From Chloroflexota bacterium (lineage in GTDB: Bacteria > Chloroflexota > Dehalococcoidia > Lucifugimonadales > Lucifugimonadaceae): a DNA stretch of 34,590 bases. The translations under genes and the position numbers were made by a program. This document shows, piece after piece, positions 20,109 to 30,044 of the stretch; within the stretch, counting starts at the first letter, position 1; each line of letters opens with the position of its first letter. The notes beneath the pieces were generated by a model that saw only the letters and a list, made by a program, of their open reading frames with translations, was not told the origin of the DNA and ran no database searches. The stretch lies in contig PBHC01000004.1 of assembly GCA_002719295.1 (NCBI GenBank), forward strand, positions 3,240 to 37,829. Direction: 5' to 3'.

Positions 20109-20999
20109 TCAATCTCCCAGCAGTGTTGACATTGTGACTCCAAGGGAGTCTGAGATTGATTTAAGCGAGCCTAGGGATACGTTTTGCTTTCCTTGCTCCA
20201 CTGCGCTTATAAATGTTCGAGCAAGTCCCGATTTCTTTGAAAGCTCGCTTTGGCTAAGATTTCTGTTTTTTCTTACCGTATGAATTTTATCTCCTAGTGA
20301 CAAAAGGACTGATTCTAAAGGCATCAAGGCGGGATTTGTTTCAACAAGAGAGTTTGCAACATATGTTGCTTTTAATGGATCGTCTGCAAAACCGTCAATA
20401 TACCTGTTGGTATCTTTTATCAATGATGCAGCGGGGCCTCCAATAATAACTTTAATATTTTTATTTAGTTCCTTAATGGATTGAATGGCCTCTTCAAGTT
20501 TATTGTTACTATTTGGAAAAGTAGATGATAAAAGAACAAAGTTAGGAACGGTTGTGTCTATATATTTTATTAAATCTGCATTTGGGATAGAGCTCCCTAA
20601 AAGCTCTACATTCCATCCGTCCCATCTAAAAAAATCTGCAGTCATATACAAACCAATCACATGAGTGTCATCCTCTATAGCCGACATAGATATTTTCATT
20701 CCATTTGGAGTAGGAAGCCTAAAATTGTTTCTAACCCTATCCATTAATAAGAGGCAAAATTGAGTCGCTCTATGCTCTTCAGTAATCAATATTTTCCCTT
20801 GATGCCATAAATTGCCTATATGGTTTAGAGAAACTCTAATCAAATCAAGGTAAATAACAGCAGGTGACCATTGCTGAGAAATCAACATTCGGGAAATTAA
20901 ATTAGCCTGATTATAATGACCATTAACCAAACTTGAAGTAAGCTGCTTAGAAACAGCCTGAATTTCAGTTTTAGGTGGCACGTACCAGTTTGAATTCAT
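20109..20999 (-). CDS. Cobalamin-binding transcriptional regulator: B12 cap domain + B12-binding Rossmann domain + C-terminal XRE HTH
   Basis: W-x9-EH (WHQGKILITEEH), DTHVIG base-off His motif and VIIGGPA. C-terminal RKNRNLSQSELSKKSGLARTFISAVEQGKQNVSLGSL is an XRE/Cro HTH. GAGGG Shine-Dalgarno present. Confidence 0.88.
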   Translation of the reverse strand: MNSNWYVPPKTEIQAVSKQLTSSLVNGHYNQANLISRMLISQQWSPAVIYLDLIRVSLNHIGNLWHQGKILITEEHRATQFCLLLMDRVRNNFRLPTPNGMKISMSAIEDDTHVIGLYMTADFFRWDGWNVELLGSSIPNADLIKYIDTTVPNFVLLSSTFPNSNNKLEEAIQSIKELNKNIKVIIGGPAASLIKDTNRYIDGFADDPLKATYVANSLVETNPALMPLESVLLSLGDKIHTVRKNRNLSQSELSKKSGLARTFISAVEQGKQNVSLGSLKSISDSLGVTMSTLLGD

Positions 21000-24394: not shown

Positions 24395-25050
24395 AGGTAA
24401 AGTTTTTATTATTTTTTTCAATATTATTAATAACTTCATGCAATCAGTTAGAAGATGATTACAACCTTTGTGATTCTAATAATTCTCTATGTACATTTTT
24501 TGAGATAAAATATCCAGAAATTTCTCAAATTACTGATGATAATGCACAACTAGCTGTTGAAGACTTAAATACTTATAGAATGTTAAGCAAAAATCACGAA
24601 GATGACATTAAATCAAATTCTGTTTTTGATTCTTATACAGAAATTTTTATACCCAGATTTTCCTACCATATATTAAATTTAGAAGGTTTAGAAAAGTTAT
24701 GGTTTGGACTTGCATTATACCCACTTGATTACAAAAATAATCTTTCTAGCGTAATAGATTTTTTTTATAGTGATGTACAATCTCTAAATGAAACTTTATA
24801 TGGGAATTGCACTAAGGATAAAGGTTCATATTTAGATTCAAAAAACAGTAAAATTTATAACTGCTTAAAAGATGGTGTAAAAAGTTACGATTTTTGGGTT
24901 TCTGATGAAGAATTTTTGTGGCGGATGAAATGTGTATGGGAAGATGATAAATTCGAAGGCATAAACCTAAATATAGTAAAATCTGAAATTGTAATATCTT
25001 CTGATACTTGCAGAAAATCATTTGAAAGCTTTAAGTCAAAAATTAATTAG
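24391..25050 (+). CDS. Hypothetical lipoprotein
   Basis: Lipobox ITSC and six further Cys that could form disulfides. ATGA overlap with the SIMPL gene. Confidence 0.65.
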   Translation: MKVKFLLFFSILLITSCNQLEDDYNLCDSNNSLCTFFEIKYPEISQITDDNAQLAVEDLNTYRMLSKNHEDDIKSNSVFDSYTEIFIPRFSYHILNLEGLEKLWFGLALYPLDYKNNLSSVIDFFYSDVQSLNETLYGNCTKDKGSYLDSKNSKIYNCLKDGVKSYDFWVSDEEFLWRMKCVWEDDKFEGINLNIVKSEIVISSDTCRKSFESFKSKIN

Positions 25051-26282
25051 ATTTTACTCGTTTTAAAATAATCAACAGCTTCTTTTAAAGAATCAATAAA
25101 GATGTCTATTTCTTTATAAGTATTATAGAGATAAAAGCTTGCTCTACAAGCTGCAACAATTTCATATGATCTAACTAATGGCATTGCACAATGATGTCCT
25201 GTTCTAATAGCAACTCCATATTTGTCTAGAATTTCTCCAATATCATGTGGATGAACAGAATTATGTGTAAAAGAAATTACCCCTCCTCTATTATTCATAT
25301 CAATAGGCCCAATAACTTTATAATCAGGTAATTCTTTTATTTTATCTAAAGCATAGCTTGTTATTTCATCCTCATGCTTTGCTATATTATCCATACCCAC
25401 TTCAACTAAATAATCTACTGCATAACCTGTAGCAATCGCATCTGCTATATTTGGAGTTCCAGCCTCAAATTTATAAGGTAAATCATTCCATTTTGCACCT
25501 TCATAAGTTACTTCTGAAATCATATCACCACCAAAATAAAAAGGATCCATCTTATCAAGTAAATCTTCTTTTCCAAATAGAACTCCTATACCAGTAGGAC
25601 CTAGCATTTTATGAGCAGAAAAAGCAAAAAAATCACAATCTATTTCTTTCATATCAACTGAAAAATGAGGAGCACTTTGAGCTCCATCTAAAACTAATAT
25701 CGTACCATTTTTCTTAGACATTTCTCTTAATTCATGTATGGGATTAATGACACCCAATACATTAGACATATGAGTAATTGCAATTATTTTAGTTTTTTTA
25801 TCTATAATTTTTTTAGCATTATCTAGATCAATTCTTCCTTCTAAATCATGATCTAAGTATCTTAATTCAGCATTCTTTTCAAAGCACAATTGTTGCCAAG
25901 GCACTAGATTTGAATGATGCTCCATTCTTGAAACTACAATATTGTCCCCCTGATTAACTTCTTCTTTTAAACCTATTGAAACAATATTTAAAGACTCACT
26001 TGTATTCCTTGTCCAAATAGTTTCATTTGGGGACGCATTAATAAAATTAGCAACCTTTACTCGTGAATTTTCATATTCGTCGGTTGCTTCAACAGATAAT
26101 TTATGAACACCTCTATGTACATTTGAATTGTAGTTAGTGTAATAGTCATTTAATGACTGAATTACTAAATTAGGTTTCTGAGAAGTTGCAGCATTATCTA
26201 AATATACAAGCTTTTTATTGTTCACTTGTCTATCTAATATTGGGAAATCATTTCTTATTTTTTCTATATTGAAATTTGCCAT
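25047..26282 (-). CDS. sufS: Cysteine desulfurase, SufS group II
   Basis: YLDNAATSQKP, MEHHSN, DGAQ, SAHKMLGPTG (PLP Lys), FEAGTP and RTGHHCAMP (catalytic Cys). Confidence 0.96.
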   Translation of the reverse strand: MANFNIEKIRNDFPILDRQVNNKKLVYLDNAATSQKPNLVIQSLNDYYTNYNSNVHRGVHKLSVEATDEYENSRVKVANFINASPNETIWTRNTSESLNIVSIGLKEEVNQGDNIVVSRMEHHSNLVPWQQLCFEKNAELRYLDHDLEGRIDLDNAKKIIDKKTKIIAITHMSNVLGVINPIHELREMSKKNGTILVLDGAQSAPHFSVDMKEIDCDFFAFSAHKMLGPTGIGVLFGKEDLLDKMDPFYFGGDMISEVTYEGAKWNDLPYKFEAGTPNIADAIATGYAVDYLVEVGMDNIAKHEDEITSYALDKIKELPDYKVIGPIDMNNRGGVISFTHNSVHPHDIGEILDKYGVAIRTGHHCAMPLVRSYEIVAACRASFYLYNTYKEIDIFIDSLKEAVDYFKTSKI

Positions 26283-26303
26283 AATTTTTCCTGAGATACT
26301 TAT

Positions 26304-26312
26304 ATTTTAACA
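26304..26312 (-). promoter_or_regulatory. Candidate extended -10 promoter (TG-T-TAAAAT) for sufS
   Basis: TGnTAAAAT about 21 nt upstream of the sufS start, with AGGA in between. Confidence 0.4.
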
Positions 26313-26331
26313 TTAAATACCAAAAAAATTA

Positions 26332-26340
26332 TGTTATTAT
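26332..26340 (+). promoter_or_regulatory. Candidate extended -10 promoter (TG-T-TATTAT) for the Cys leader and yeeE operon
   Basis: Ends 8 nt before the leader ATG at 26349, with no Shine-Dalgarno in between. Confidence 0.5.
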
Positions 26341-26348
26341 ACAAGTCT

Positions 26349-26420
26349 ATGAATATAAGAAATTTAACAAATAACGGATGTATCTGTTGCTGTTGTATGA
26401 ACAGCTCCAGGTTTCTTTAA
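26349..26420 (+). CDS. Cysteine-rich leader peptide, 23 aa: MNIRNLTNNGCICCCCMNSSRFL
   Basis: ATG at 26349, then TGT ATC TGT TGC TGT TGT at 26379-26396, and TAA at 26418-26420. It lies directly upstream of a sulfur-transport operon. Confidence 0.85.
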   Translation: MNIRNLTNNGCICCCCMNSSRFL

Positions 26421-26479
26421 TTTGTTTTAATTTCAAAAATAATACAAAATTTAGAAACCCCTTAAACGGGGTTTTTTTT
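26379..26479 (+). promoter_or_regulatory. Putative cysteine-responsive ribosome-mediated attenuator
   Basis: A Cys codon run is followed by an antiterminator pairing, GGTTTCT (26410-26416) with AGAAACC (26453-26459), which competes with the terminator stem. Confidence 0.78.
26453..26479 (+). terminator. Intrinsic terminator in the leader of the yeeE operon
   Basis: Stem AAACCCC (26455-26461), loop TTAAAC, stem GGGGTTT (26468-26474), with a T8 tract at 26472-26479. Confidence 0.8.
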
Positions 26480-27721
26480 ATGGAAAATTTAATGTTAAAA
26501 ACAGAAAAAATAAAAGTATCAAATCAAAAAATCTTAGGTTGGTTATTTTTTGTACTAGTATTTATATTCTCTTTTGCGATATCACAAAATAATTTCTCTG
26601 ATGCGGCTATTTGGATTGCAGCATGTGGATTAGGTTTCACTCTGCAAAAATCTAGATTTTGCTTTGCATCATCTTTTAGGGATTTATTTATGTTTGGATC
26701 TGGTCATAATATGAAGGCTGTACTTTTAGCAATGTCTATAGCTTCTGTAGGTTTTGTGGGAATATTAAAATGGATATTGCCAGATCCTGTTCCAGGCGAA
26801 TTTCCTTCTTCTGCACATGTGCTTCCATTTGGTTTTTCCACATTAATTGCAGGTACTGTTTTTGGCGTAGGCATGGTAACAGCAGGAGGATGTGTTTCAG
26901 GGACAATATATAGAATAGCAGAAGGGTATGTTGCTTCAATTGTCACAATGATAGGGATTTTTATAGGCACAATTTTATTAGTAATCACTTGGGATTTTTG
27001 GTGGGATAATTTTATAAGCAATGAACCAAAAATCTTTCTACCCTCAACTCAATCCATAGGTTATGGATTTTCATTATTAATTACTATGCTTGGAATTATT
27101 TTAGTATATTTCCTAGTTGTCTATATTGAAACAAAATCTGGTGTTGGCAGTTTCTCTATATCAAAAAAATCTGAACTTAAATCTAAAAGTTTCTTTGAAA
27201 CAATCAAGCAAAATATTGATACATTATTCTCAAAAAGCTGGACAGCTTACTCTGGAGGAATTGCTCTTGGGTTTATTGGAATAGTTTATTTTCTATTTCA
27301 TTCTCCACCAGGTGTAACCGGTGAAATAATGAAACAATCAATGAATATTGCTCAAGGTATAAACCTTTCAGACGGACCTTTAAAAGGAATAGCTTCACTT
27401 AGCGGGTGCTTGGGTTCTAGTATAGAATCAGGTATTATATCTCATACTTTCGTAAGTACAGTAGGAGTGTTCTTTGGAGCCTTAGTTTCAGCATTGCTTT
27501 CTCAAGAATTTAAAATAAGAACTCCAAAAGAAACAAAAAGATATGTTCAATCATTATCTGGAGGAATTCTCATGGGATACTCTGCAAGCCTTGGAATCGG
27601 TTGTACTATTGGGGCATTCTTTTCAGCAATACCTTCATTCTCTTTATCAGGATGGCTTTTTGGAATAAGCCTTGCAATGGGGGCATTTATTGGAACTAAA
27701 ATCATTAAATTTATAGGATAA
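26480..27721 (+). CDS. YeeE/YedE-family sulfur-compound (thiosulfate-type) transporter (start revised to 26480; 26492 is an alternative)
   Basis: Two sulfur-transport repeats with the conserved Cys motifs SRFCF, AGGCVSG and GIGCTIG. The ORF-track start at 26378 runs through the leader and terminator. Confidence 0.92.
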   Translation: MENLMLKTEKIKVSNQKILGWLFFVLVFIFSFAISQNNFSDAAIWIAACGLGFTLQKSRFCFASSFRDLFMFGSGHNMKAVLLAMSIASVGFVGILKWILPDPVPGEFPSSAHVLPFGFSTLIAGTVFGVGMVTAGGCVSGTIYRIAEGYVASIVTMIGIFIGTILLVITWDFWWDNFISNEPKIFLPSTQSIGYGFSLLITMLGIILVYFLVVYIETKSGVGSFSISKKSELKSKSFFETIKQNIDTLFSKSWTAYSGGIALGFIGIVYFLFHSPPGVTGEIMKQSMNIAQGINLSDGPLKGIASLSGCLGSSIESGIISHTFVSTVGVFFGALVSALLSQEFKIRTPKETKRYVQSLSGGILMGYSASLGIGCTIGAFFSAIPSFSLSGWLFGISLAMGAFIGTKIIKFIG

Positions 27722-27723
27722 AA

Positions 27724-27975
27724 ATGAAAAAAATAAATGAAATAAACTTAATTAAAATTCCAGTAAAAGATCAATTATTAAGAATAAATGAAATCTTAGA
27801 AGAACTATTTTCTAGTAATGGTGGCATCGGAAACTGTAGTAAAACAAAAATACTAACGACTGATGAATTACTTGTAAAGTATATTCCACCAAAAGCAGTC
27901 GAAAAAAAAATCAAAATAAAAATCAAATATGTTGATGATATCTGGCACATAACTTTAGAAAAGGAACAAAAATGA
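27724..27975 (+). CDS. TusA-like protein lacking the CPxP motif
   Basis: Aligns by eye with the next gene: IPPKAVEK vs IPPQALKR, WHITLEK vs WKITLTK, LRINE vs LKTNE. Confidence 0.65.
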   Translation: MKKINEINLIKIPVKDQLLRINEILEELFSSNGGIGNCSKTKILTTDELLVKYIPPKAVEKKIKIKIKYVDDIWHITLEKEQK

Positions 27976-28208
27976 GTAATGAAGAAATAAAAAAATTGGA
28001 TCTTAGGGGTGAAATTTGTCCTTATCCAATGCTCAAGACTAATGAAGAATTAGATTCAAATAAGGATATAAATATTCTTGAAGTCATCACAGATCATTCT
28101 CCTGCTCTCTCAACTATTCCACCACAAGCATTAAAAAGAGGTTATGAAGTTGAAATAGATGAAATCGATAACAGTGAATGGAAAATAACTTTAACAAAAG
28201 ATAATTAA
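27972..28208 (+). CDS. Sulfur carrier, TusA/YeeD/YedF family
   Basis: LDLRGEICPYP, LEVITDH and IP..A.KRGY. Confidence 0.93.
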   Translation: MSNEEIKKLDLRGEICPYPMLKTNEELDSNKDINILEVITDHSPALSTIPPQALKRGYEVEIDEIDNSEWKITLTKDN

Positions 28209-28223
28209 ATATAAGGGGGACTT

Positions 28224-29132
28224 ATGAAAAAATTATTAATAATTGGATTTGCAACAATTGGACTCTTTTTGGGCTGTTCGTCAGAAGGATCAGACTCTGG
28301 GTTTAGCAATAGAGGATATTCTAGTACAGACAAGCTAGTATCTGCTGAATGGCTAAATAATAATCTAAAAAGTGTAAAAATAATAGATGTAAGAAAAGCA
28401 GAAGATTATGACACAGGGCATATTCCAGGTGCAGTTAGATTGACTCCAAATGAAGTTTTTCAATGGGAAACTGAAGATGGAGTTAAAGGGATGTTACCAT
28501 CTAGCAATCATATATCAGAAGCTCTTTCGTCTGTAGGAATAGGGGAAAATGATACGGTTATTTTTTATGACGGCAATAGTAACTTGTGGGCATCAAGAGG
28601 ATTATGGGCACTAGAGGTTTATGGGCATCAAGATTCTAGATTACTTGATGGATCTTGGGCTTACTGGTCAGAAAATGGATACCCTATAAGTACTGATAGT
28701 CCTTCTATTTCAAAAACTAATTATAAATTTTCGGGCACACCAAACTCAGACTTAATAGCCGACTGGGAAGAAATATTAGAAACAGTTGATGACCCTTCAA
28801 AAATTGTTTGTGACACTAGAAGCCCTGATGAATATGCAGGTAAGGATGTAAGAGCTGACAGAGGAGGTCATATTCCAGGAGCAGAAAATGTGAACTGGGT
28901 TAATGCTGTTGATGAAAGTGGACAATTCCTAGATGCAGATAAATTAAGTAGCATTTATGAAAGCAAAGGAATAAAGACTGAAAAAGCAGTTTATACACTA
29001 TGTCAAACCGCAGTGAGAGCTACTCACACCTGGTTTGTTCTACAAGAGCTTTTAGGTTATGACAATGTAAAAGTTTATGATGGCTCTTGGATTGAGTGGG
29101 GTAATTCAGAATTACCTATAGAATCAAAATAG
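28224..29132 (+). CDS. Tandem-domain rhodanese (sulfurtransferase) with lipoprotein signal
   Basis: Lipobox FLGC, two GHIPGA motifs, active loop CQTAVRA and VYDGSWIEW. AAGGGGG Shine-Dalgarno present. Confidence 0.92.
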   Translation: MKKLLIIGFATIGLFLGCSSEGSDSGFSNRGYSSTDKLVSAEWLNNNLKSVKIIDVRKAEDYDTGHIPGAVRLTPNEVFQWETEDGVKGMLPSSNHISEALSSVGIGENDTVIFYDGNSNLWASRGLWALEVYGHQDSRLLDGSWAYWSENGYPISTDSPSISKTNYKFSGTPNSDLIADWEEILETVDDPSKIVCDTRSPDEYAGKDVRADRGGHIPGAENVNWVNAVDESGQFLDADKLSSIYESKGIKTEKAVYTLCQTAVRATHTWFVLQELLGYDNVKVYDGSWIEWGNSELPIESK

Positions 29133-29135
29133 GTT

Positions 29136-30044
29136 CTAATCTGAAGTTTTTATTGCATGAATAATTGCTTGATATGTGACTTTAATAGTAGCTGCAAAAA
29201 GTTGGTCTATTGATAACTTTGATTCAATTTCATTTGTAGTTGCTGCAAAAAACAGATCTCCGTCATTAGAAGTATGCGATGGCCTTACTGATAAAGCTAG
29301 GCCATCATGTGCTGCTACTGCTAATCTTTTGCAATCTACTTTGCTTATTTTTGAGTTTGTAAAAATAGCTCCAATAGTTGTATTTTGAAATCCTCTTTTT
29401 TCAGGTTTTCCATTTATATATAAATCTAAAGAATCGTAAATTTTTCCATTTTTTTTTGGCCCTGCTATAATTTTTCCATTTTCAGGATCAACAATAGAGC
29501 CCAAAGCATTTACGGCAACCAAACAAGCAATTGATGTTCCGTCATCAAAATCGTGAAATGAAAATCCAAGACCACCTTGCATACTATATTTAGTTCCTAA
29601 TAACTTACCTACTGTACAACCAGTACCTACTCCAACATTCCCAATTTCAAATTCATTAGAAGCGTTTTGTGCAGCTAAATAACCATGTTCTGTATCAGGT
29701 CTAACTGAAGAGTTTCCAACACTTAAATCAAAAATCACAGCAGAAGGAACTAAAGGAATTGTGTTACCTCCAAACTTAATACCAATTCCTTTTTCTTCAA
29801 GAAATTGTACAACTCCGGATGAAGCATTTAATCCAAATGCACTTCCTCCTGTAAGTAGAAGTCCGTTGATATTTGGAGCAGTTGCAATTGGATCTAAAAG
29901 AGCTATTTCTTTGGTCCCTGGAGCTCCTCCTCTAATATCAATTGAAGCAATAAGAGGGACATCAGAAATAATAGCTGTGCAGCCAGTTTTATTTTCTTTA
30001 TCTGTCCAATGCCCTATTTTAATTTCATTTATATTTGAATTCAT
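29136..30044 (-). CDS. P1/S58-family (DmpA-like) peptidase
   Basis: IGHWTD...TGCT, RGGAPGTKE, LTGGSAFGL, NTTIG autoprocessing site and HT..DGD. Confidence 0.9.
   Translation of the reverse strand: MNSNINEIKIGHWTDKENKTGCTAIISDVPLIASIDIRGGAPGTKEIALLDPIATAPNINGLLLTGGSAFGLNASSGVVQFLEEKGIGIKFGGNTIPLVPSAVIFDLSVGNSSVRPDTEHGYLAAQNASNEFEIGNVGVGTGCTVGKLLGTKYSMQGGLGFSFHDFDDGTSIACLVAVNALGSIVDPENGKIIAGPKKNGKIYDSLDLYINGKPEKRGFQNTTIGAIFTNSKISKVDCKRLAVAAHDGLALSVRPSHTSNDGDLFFAATTNEIESKLSIDQLFAATIKVTYQAIIHAIKTSD

Follow-up and report, generated by a model that had tools for sequence, protein, structure and literature searches.

What is a very short open reading frame (ORF), crowded with cysteine codons, doing directly upstream of a sulfur-transporter gene, and why is it followed by what looks like a transcription terminator with a competing structure in front of it? 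The question is raised by the yeeE locus in a stretch of 34,590 nucleotides (nt; hereafter the window, with a G+C content of 30%) from a Chloroflexota bacterium of the family Lucifugimonadaceae, the source assembly of which amounts to 1.27 Mb and is 81% complete. Ahead of yeeE, on the forward strand, lies a leader ORF of 23 codons plus a TAA stop (MNIRNLTNNGCICCCCMNSSRFL, 26349-26420, with the stop codon at 26418-26420), in which five of six consecutive codons specify cysteine (TGT ATC TGT TGC TGT TGT, 26379-26396; the Cys codons themselves occupy 26379-26381 and 26385-26396). A preliminary description of this region had proposed a cysteine-sensing attenuator, and direct reading of the window located every feature on which it drew, that is, the ORF, its Cys codons, the complementary strands, the hairpins and a run of eight T residues (T8), exactly where it had placed them. 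Taken together, the comparative and modelling evidence presented below makes it likely, in our judgement with good confidence, that the element is a ribosome-mediated transcription attenuator of the trp/his type, which would read the supply of cysteinyl-tRNA and thereby gate the genes yeeE, orf83, tusA and a rhodanese gene downstream. The operon would then most likely be switched on when cysteine is short.

How would such a switch be built? The intrinsic terminator (26455-26479, forward strand) has a 7-bp stem with four G-C pairs, formed by AAACCCC (26455-26461) and GGGGTTT (26468-26474) around the loop TTAAAC, followed by the T8 tract (26472-26479), and a calculated stability of -9.4 kcal/mol. 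The competing antiterminator, as seen in the fold, has a 5' strand, GGTTTCTTTAATTTGT (26410-26425), that includes the stop codon of the leader ORF, and a 3' strand, ACAAAATTTAGAAACC (26444-26459), that overlaps five of the seven bases of the terminator 5' arm; GGTTTCT (26410-26416) is complementary to AGAAACC (26453-26459), and AATTTGT (26419-26425) faces ACAAAATT (26444-26451). For the 171-nt leader the calculated folding energy is -39.3 kcal/mol (z = -4.4), a stability attained by one of 200 shuffled sequences; in this fold the yeeE start region and the bases after the T-run are unpaired. In the mechanism proposed here, transcription would start at the leader AUG (26349) or a few bases away from it at most, and the ribosome would load on the 5' end of the RNA. 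With Cys-tRNA plentiful, it would reach the TAA at 26418 and cover 26410-26425; the bases 26444-26459 would be left unpaired, the hairpin 26455-26474 would form, and RNA polymerase would be expected to halt at the T8 tract, 12 nt before the yeeE start codon. With Cys-tRNA scarce, the ribosome would stall with its A site within 26379-26396 and its front edge short of 26410, so that GGTTTCT could pair with AGAAACC once the latter is made; five of the seven bases of the terminator 5' arm would then be taken and transcription would continue into yeeE. The spacing in the window is consistent with this scheme: counted from the Cys codons (first base), the antiterminator strand lies 16-31 nt downstream, and relative to the stop codon it is at -8 to -4 nt, from which it follows, for the ribosome footprint as modelled, that a stalled ribosome would leave the strand free and a terminating one would cover it.

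Is this arrangement found elsewhere? A YeeE relative is present in 21 of 61 related genomes, in 39 of 152 genomes of the family (7 of 19 genera), in 35 of 401 genomes sampled from the order and in 47 of 401 sampled from the class; 63 distinct yeeE loci of the order were drawn from these genome sets. They were scored by a fixed rule. To qualify, the leader zone of a gene had to contain an ORF no longer than 45 codons in which three or more Cys fell within seven codons, and this ORF had to end between 10 nt inside and 60 nt ahead of a hairpin that reaches -8 kcal/mol or better and has a T-rich tail. By this rule 32 of the 63 loci were positive, with 3-6 Cys per seven codons in the Cys run and an ORF ending 27-50 nt before an intrinsic terminator; among 25 yeeE loci belonging to other orders of the class, there was no positive. 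The positives comprise all loci of the window's genus g1 (11/11) and of genera g6 (5/5), g5 (7/7) and g17 (1/1), both loci from named metagenome-assembled genome (MAG) records (2/2), both of family f42 (2/2), and some of those in genus g7 (2/12) and in families f45 (1/3) and f26 (1/2, the other locus being cut by a contig end). No positives were found in genera g4 (0/2) and g11 (0/1, a sequence with Ns) or in families f24 (0/1), f7 (0/1), f15 (0/2), f16 (0/1) and f50 (0/10). Three loci that fail the rule look like members by eye: L013 (contig end), L074 (the tail of which fails the T criterion) and L054 (Ns). The leaders form about a dozen groups without mutual sequence likeness, exemplified by MNIRNLTNNGCICCCCMNSSRFL, MITKYSNKNINCCCSCCETPRVSSV, MINNQQNCICCCCTSLNRGITARMFIH, MKNITNSNCCCCTPLNGVI, VKKLEVNHMCMCCCPG, MIFLNAHLTDCLCCCTTSEEMAP and MLNCTGCCNCCCCAHPLEEQG, and their Cys runs vary by group (CICCCC, CCCSCC, CMCCC, CLCCC, CCNCCCC). 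In all 26 loci that were analysed, the leader ORF has 16-31 codons with 4-6 Cys, and 27-37 nt separate its stop codon from the terminator 5' arm. The layout that the preliminary description envisaged, namely a Cys leader ORF with an antiterminator competing with an intrinsic terminator ahead of a sulfur operon, is by sequence comparison conserved across several genera and families.

Two sets of loci merit mention in their own right. The YeeE proteins of the named Chloroflexota/Dehalococcoidia MAG records (L024 and L025) are 77-79% identical to that of the window, and their leaders (VKKLEVNHMCMCCCPG and MKINLTSCVCMCCSPP), promoters and terminators have no sequence in common with those of the window's genus; either the leader turns over much faster than yeeE, or yeeE has moved. 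In genus g7, several loci (L016, L041-L044, L046, L048 and L051), inspected by eye, have no Cys leader before yeeE; about 60-130 nt before the gene they carry a TACACT -10 element and, after 7 nt, a TTG-start ORF of about 20 codons (e.g. MRKSPADRGYFLSRTFRKRN), which runs through a CCCCG...CGGGG hairpin with a T-rich tail and may represent a different, translation-coupled leader.

Would the position of the ribosome decide between the two folds, as the preliminary description supposed? Folds with the ribosome placed on the leader were computed for 26 of the 32 rule-positive loci; L021 and L040 were omitted on account of Ns, and L069, L070, L072 and L079 were done later. With the ribosome at the first Cys codon and the nascent RNA folded as far as the terminator loop, 5-9 bases of the terminator 5' arm pair upstream in all 26 loci (-8.2 to -33.1 kcal/mol); for a ribosome positioned on the stop codon, the figure is only 0-5 arm bases (0 to -3.2 kcal/mol). 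In the window's locus, five of the seven arm bases pair upstream when the ribosome is at Cys (-10.4 kcal/mol). Dinucleotide shuffles of the spacer match both measures in 0-17 of 300 cases per locus, four in that of the window, and those of the later set reach the observed values in 1 (L079), 14 (L072) and 16 (L070) of 300. The predicted logic, in which the arm is engaged at a Cys stall and released at the stop codon, operates in the modelled folds of 26 of 26 loci and beats the shuffled controls. Among the 14 aligned leaders of genera g1 and g6 (alignment A1), the GGTTTC/GAAACC core can pair in every one, and the terminator, all eight pairs of which are retained in 14 of 14, is the sole consensus helix. 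Across groups, the complementary stretch varies along with the terminator arm (GGTTTC/GAAACC, AGGGG/CCCCT, GGGGTC/GGCCCC, GCAAC/GTTGC), and this group-wise joint change is comparative evidence, at the level of sequence, for the antiterminator.

Which part of the leader ORF is kept for the sake of its codons? The start codon is invariant across the 14 aligned leaders, and TGT/TGC exchanges are seen among the Cys codons of the relatives in the same alignment. Past the Cys run, the frame of L006 and L007 is altered by an indel; the bases GGTTTCTTTAATTTGT are nevertheless retained, which implies that the 3' part of the ORF is conserved as RNA and not as peptide; judged from these comparisons, it is only the Cys run of the leader ORF that is conserved as coding sequence. 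Cys runs by themselves are not uncommon in this genome: when the 1.27-Mb assembly was scanned in six frames for four close Cys, 56 places were returned, and eight of the eight others inspected are out-of-frame readings within long ORFs (GCTGCT runs). The fixed rule, by contrast, was positive at none of 861 other genes of this genome, in a run that overlooked yeeE itself since the mechanical gene start at 26378 displaces the search window. A stricter scan for terminators immediately 5' of genes yielded seven places genome-wide, among which ORFs with amino-acid runs precede only yeeE and metY (the latter twice, on duplicated contigs), and no further Cys-run leader was found in this genome by the six-frame, terminator or fixed-rule scans.

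The metY element is a second attenuator of the same build (contig C17, 16701-16832, or L064 from about position 1330, with an identical copy on C11). Its promoter reads TTGACA-18-TATACT, followed after 7 nt by the ATG of a 22-codon leader with a Met run (MELFRFTMNMNMMMMTFSEGEA); a GGAGGGGG stretch faces the terminator (AAACCCCC/GGGGG plus T7), and a Shine-Dalgarno sequence and metY come next. The Met-run leader is retained in 13 of 19 metY loci examined, all 13 of them from the window's genus. Upstream of metY in L103 (family f15) there is a mixed Met/Cys leader (MSMCNTSVCSTLHCCSSSQIVR), the 3' end of which repeats the terminator 3' arm (ACAAATTGTGAGG) and should therefore be able to pair with the terminator 5' arm. 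That the codon run follows the pathway, Cys ahead of sulfur uptake and Met ahead of metY, is the strongest indirect argument, drawn as it is from sequence, that the codons are read; along with the yeeE leader, the metY leader suggests that mini-genes of this sort are in regular use for regulation in this lineage. As to the assembly itself, the contig pairs C1/C20, C11/C17 and C12/C19 share identical stretches and represent duplicated pieces.

Could the same features be accounted for otherwise? The short ORF might encode a functional Cys-rich micropeptide that binds metal or sulfur, or itself carries sulfur, and is expressed together with the operon, the terminator being incidental or serving for tuning. 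The Cys cluster is indeed the most conserved feature of the peptide, and the operon handles sulfur via Cys-persulfide carriers; however, peptides of different groups have no likeness beyond the Cys run, L006 and L007 change frame just after it with the RNA sequence retained, the position of the stop codon is in every case at the antiterminator strand or close to it, and a sulfur-binding peptide would leave the Met-run twin before metY unexplained. We hold this explanation to be quite improbable. It is likewise conceivable that an attenuator is present and that it senses the general translation rate or ribosome availability, tRNA modification or the oxidative state, and not cysteine specifically. 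Here the failure to find a conserved 1:2 (pause) hairpin has to be reckoned with, as do those g7 loci in which a Cys-free ORF of 20 codons runs through the terminator before yeeE, taken here as a sign that translation-dependent control without Cys codons exists in this family. Yet Cys codons are enriched in every leader group, the rule found nothing at 861 other genes, and the replacement of Cys by Met codons before metY means that codon identity tracks the pathway; we regard a reading of any of these kinds as decidedly unlikely.

Two further explanations were weighed. If the ORF were a chance frame, the region would comprise a plain promoter and a constitutive or protein-controlled terminator, or else a small-molecule riboswitch-like RNA. 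Out-of-frame Cys runs are, as noted, common in the genome (56 places), and Rfam (15) gave no match in the leader at the gathering score and, at a loose E-value, only sub-threshold matches, among them Phe_leader (RF01859, 26.4 bits, gathering score 55) and Trp_leader (RF00513, 13.9 bits, gathering score 41). On the other hand, the ORF is conserved among leaders that are unrelated in sequence, the terminator is the one conserved RNA structure, and a leader of only about 130 nt with a sequence that differs between genera is unlike a ligand-binding aptamer, so that a chance frame strikes us as very improbable. Finally, could the +2 frame be the relevant one, either as a leucine leader by virtue of its Leu run (YLLLLY) or as an N-terminal extension of YeeE from the ATG at 26378? 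The TGY repeats read YTG (Leu) in this frame, TGT/TGC exchanges are silent there too, and in the window it is open from 26378 into yeeE. But in 11 of 26 loci the run is not preceded by a start codon in this frame, and in 8 of 26 it is interrupted by a stop; the extension is broken in relatives, where the open frames measure 410-449 amino acids and a TAA or a frame change follows the first ATG, and it would require translation through the terminator; a leucine leader would have no link to the operon. Both variants were rejected on the start and stop counts and the frames broken in relatives, and they are hardly credible.

What speaks against a cysteine-reading attenuator of the trp/his type? 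Several findings do, and they should be weighed jointly. The preliminary description expected related yeeE upstream regions to share Cys runs and covarying stems; the runs are there (32 of 63), and on the stems the g1/g6 alignment is silent, as its core and terminator pairs are invariant and classical covariation is consequently uninformative. It had also noted a small hairpin overlapping the Cys codons, the two halves of which, GCTGTT (26389-26394) and AACAGC (26400-26405), are present in the window, where a leader-internal (1:2) hairpin is indeed predicted. Such leader-internal pairing, GCTGTT/AACAGC included, is not conserved (66.7% of cells paired versus 65.1% in shuffles), and the element may lack a 1:2 hairpin of the trp type. 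A leader-internal 1:2 hairpin is not universal among ribosome-mediated transcription attenuators. Without one, an untranslated leader might read through, and RNA polymerase and ribosome would have to be kept in step in some other way. The antiterminator and the terminator are, moreover, similar in energy at this locus (-10.4 versus -9.4 kcal/mol), so that the outcome would have to depend on which is synthesized first, and for a ribosome stalled at the run's last Cys codon the minimum-energy fold of the full-length RNA is that of the terminator. Support is weaker at distant loci, where shuffles reach the observed values in 35 (L069) and 135 (L074) of 300 cases. L069, the leader of which has 21 codons, and L070 keep 6-7 arm bases paired with the ribosome at the stop codon, and a terminating ribosome would already have passed the antiterminator strand in L014, L019 and L052, where 23-38 nt separate that strand from the stop codon downstream. 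About half of the order's yeeE loci are without the element, and related genomes are non-independent samples.

Transcript data contribute little to this question. Nine sequencing runs, eight of them recorded as RNA, contain parts of 25900-27900, and in four marine or aquatic metatranscriptome runs from two studies, compared with 25000-29300, contigs cover pieces of yeeE, tusA and the rhodanese gene. None of these contigs extends over 26296-26583, so they are uninformative on leader RNA, and contigs cannot show ends; this, too, has to be entered on the debit side of the attenuator.

How would a ribosome get onto so short a leader? The question was not touched on in the preliminary description, and the region upstream suggests an answer. 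A probable extended -10 element, TGtTATTAT (26332-26340, forward strand), ends 8 nt 5' of the leader ATG; an alternative promoter on the same strand, TTAACA (26307-26312), 17 nt and TATGTT (26330-26335), would give a 5' untranslated region (UTR) of about 6-8 nt. Of 28 loci, 24 have a TAnnnT box 6-9 nt ahead of the leader start codon, 15 of them with TG one base upstream of the box, and several loci have an exact TTGACA at a spacing of 17-18 nt. No Shine-Dalgarno sequence was found ahead of the leader ORF, whereas metY in the same genome has AAGGAG. Because of this box spacing and the absence of a Shine-Dalgarno sequence, the leader mRNA is probably leaderless or nearly so. An in-frame ATG at 26331 falls within the promoter under either promoter reading and is best read as part of it (the TG of the extended -10 element).

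How does the element compare with systems already described? A search of the literature came upon no account of an element of this kind ahead of yeeE or within Chloroflexota, which does not prove absence given that most subscription journals lay outside its coverage. To this extent the preliminary description, which knew of no attenuator of this kind for a yeeE operon or for the lineage, stands; in tying cysteine leaders to Actinobacteria it was too narrow, since the available part of one report (PMC8632094) predicts a cysteine-type attenuator outside that phylum. The mechanism itself appears to be classical trp/his attenuation, with a case that, by its sequence, would be newly described for yeeE. 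Classical leader-peptide attenuators include E. coli trp, Salmonella his and others, as cited in the available portion of one study (bioRxiv 10.1101/834739). The yeeE leader would share with them a translated ORF rich in codons that specify the sensed amino acid, mutually exclusive antiterminator and terminator hairpins, a stop codon at the antiterminator 5' strand and a T-run just before the first structural gene. Unlike trp and his, it would sense cysteine, it precedes a sulfur-uptake and carrier operon instead of a biosynthetic one, it occurs in Chloroflexota, and it combines a probable leaderless start without a Shine-Dalgarno sequence with the lack of a conserved 1:2 hairpin and of any sequence homology.

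The leaderless polycysteine small ORFs (sORFs) of mycobacteria, the Ms5788A class of the ‘Cys ribulon’, offer a further parallel (Canestrari et al., bioRxiv 10.1101/834739). According to the sections available, ribosome stalling at the Cys codons turns on downstream sulfur genes, and it does so because the Cys tract otherwise forms a very stable duplex with the next gene's Shine-Dalgarno sequence and hides it; translation is what is controlled, and transcription past the start is unregulated. Both systems have a run of Cys codons and sulfur genes downstream, and the best-studied mycobacterial operon also includes, as far as that text goes, a thiosulfate sulfurtransferase (rhodanese). A leaderless start is a feature of the mycobacterial elements; here one is suggested by the -10 box that 24 of 28 loci have 6-9 nt ahead of the start codon, with a promoter giving a short 5' UTR as the alternative. 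In contrast to what those sections describe, the Chloroflexota element has an antiterminator that competes with a canonical intrinsic terminator ending in T8, and no masking of a Shine-Dalgarno sequence in its fold. Another related element is uORFC-8-2, an upstream ORF before cysS in the Rhodobacterales (Alphaproteobacteria), for which attenuation was predicted by comparative analysis only (Brewer et al. 2021, PMC8632094). In the accessible part of that work, it likewise joins Cys codons to a terminator with a U-run, and both elements are known from comparative analysis alone; that motif, however, has two tandem Cys codons and serves cysteinyl-tRNA synthetase, as against 4-6 Cys, yeeE-tusA-rhodanese, a probable leaderless start and Chloroflexota here. 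Candidate Cys leader peptides have also been put forward for cys operons of Actinobacteria (Seliverstov et al. 2005, PMC1262725). The available text of that paper shows them to be similar in that they are short ORFs with Cys-codon runs near the stop codon before sulfur or cysteine genes, and different in that they come without terminator hairpins, for which the authors suggested Rho, whereas here both terminator and antiterminator are explicit and conserved.

What, then, does the switch control? The first structural gene, yeeE (26492-27721, forward strand as are all genes of the operon), encodes a Sulf_transp protein (PF04143, Pfam E 6.8e-60). It is followed by orf83 (27724-27975), which encodes 83 amino acids without a Pfam match, is weakly similar to the adjacent TusA (BLASTP E 0.001, 24% identity over 63 residues) and is retained in the window's genus and genus g6; by a gene for a TusA/YeeD-type sulfur carrier (27972-28208, PF01206, E 3.7e-18); and, as the last gene, by that for a double-rhodanese sulfurtransferase (28224-29132, PF00581), after which the next gene is on the opposite strand. 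In all 44 loci that reach far enough, tusA accompanies yeeE (six more loci are too short), and the yeeE-tusA-rhodanese cluster is retained in loci with and without the leader. Uptake of thiosulfate for sulfur assimilation is the role of YeeE together with YeeD in the available part of PMC11073785, and the operon yeeE-orf83-tusA-rhodanese probably takes up and handles thiosulfate. The gene 5' of the leader, for a class-V aminotransferase/cysteine desulfurase, is divergent, and the hairpin can therefore not terminate an upstream gene. The true start of yeeE, to judge from the sequences, is probably at 26492, where the start codon is conserved, and not at the ATG at 26480 that abuts the T-run; 26492 is preferred because the latter is not conserved in frame among relatives, its equivalent being followed by TAA in L004 and L005 and out of frame in L003. 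Mechanical ORF finding starts yeeE at the ATG at 26378 (ORF 26378-27721), through the terminator and into the leader. Automatic annotation may in this way bury the attenuator in a false N-terminal extension of YeeE, and the leader ORFs are too short for calling. Elsewhere in the window, on the reverse strand (20109-20999), a 296-amino-acid protein is encoded that has N-terminal B12-binding_2 and B12-binding domains and a C-terminal HTH_3 domain of the XRE type, a domain order that is unusual for a B12-dependent regulator.

Why might cysteine supply and thiosulfate uptake be coupled in these cells? In the 81%-complete genome, neither the PAPS-reductase nor the sulfite-reductase families were found, cysK/cysM were not detected at the family cut-off (best 66.3 bits versus 344), and a SAM-I (S-adenosylmethionine) riboswitch was not found; searches for SAM-II and SAM-V were run without a positive control and are hence uninformative. 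A single PF01053 enzyme of MetY size is encoded, on two duplicated contigs. The organism may depend on reduced sulfur sources. A wider proposal, which we advance tentatively and whose chances we rate a little below even, is that the sulfur economy of these streamlined marine Chloroflexota is run by a few leaderless, ribosome-read transcription attenuators (Cys for thiosulfate uptake, Met for metY) that replace protein regulators and SAM riboswitches in cells seemingly without assimilatory sulfate reduction. The yeeE element would extend leader-peptide attenuation to cysteine, to a sulfur-uptake operon and to Chloroflexota, joining a leaderless start with a classical terminator switch; if the proposed reading is true, no terminator-type cysteine attenuator before it would have had broad comparative support. 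The levels of charged tRNA would then directly set the uptake of reduced sulfur in an abundant ocean lineage, and the leader would offer a testable handle on when uncultured, genome-reduced ocean bacteria import it.

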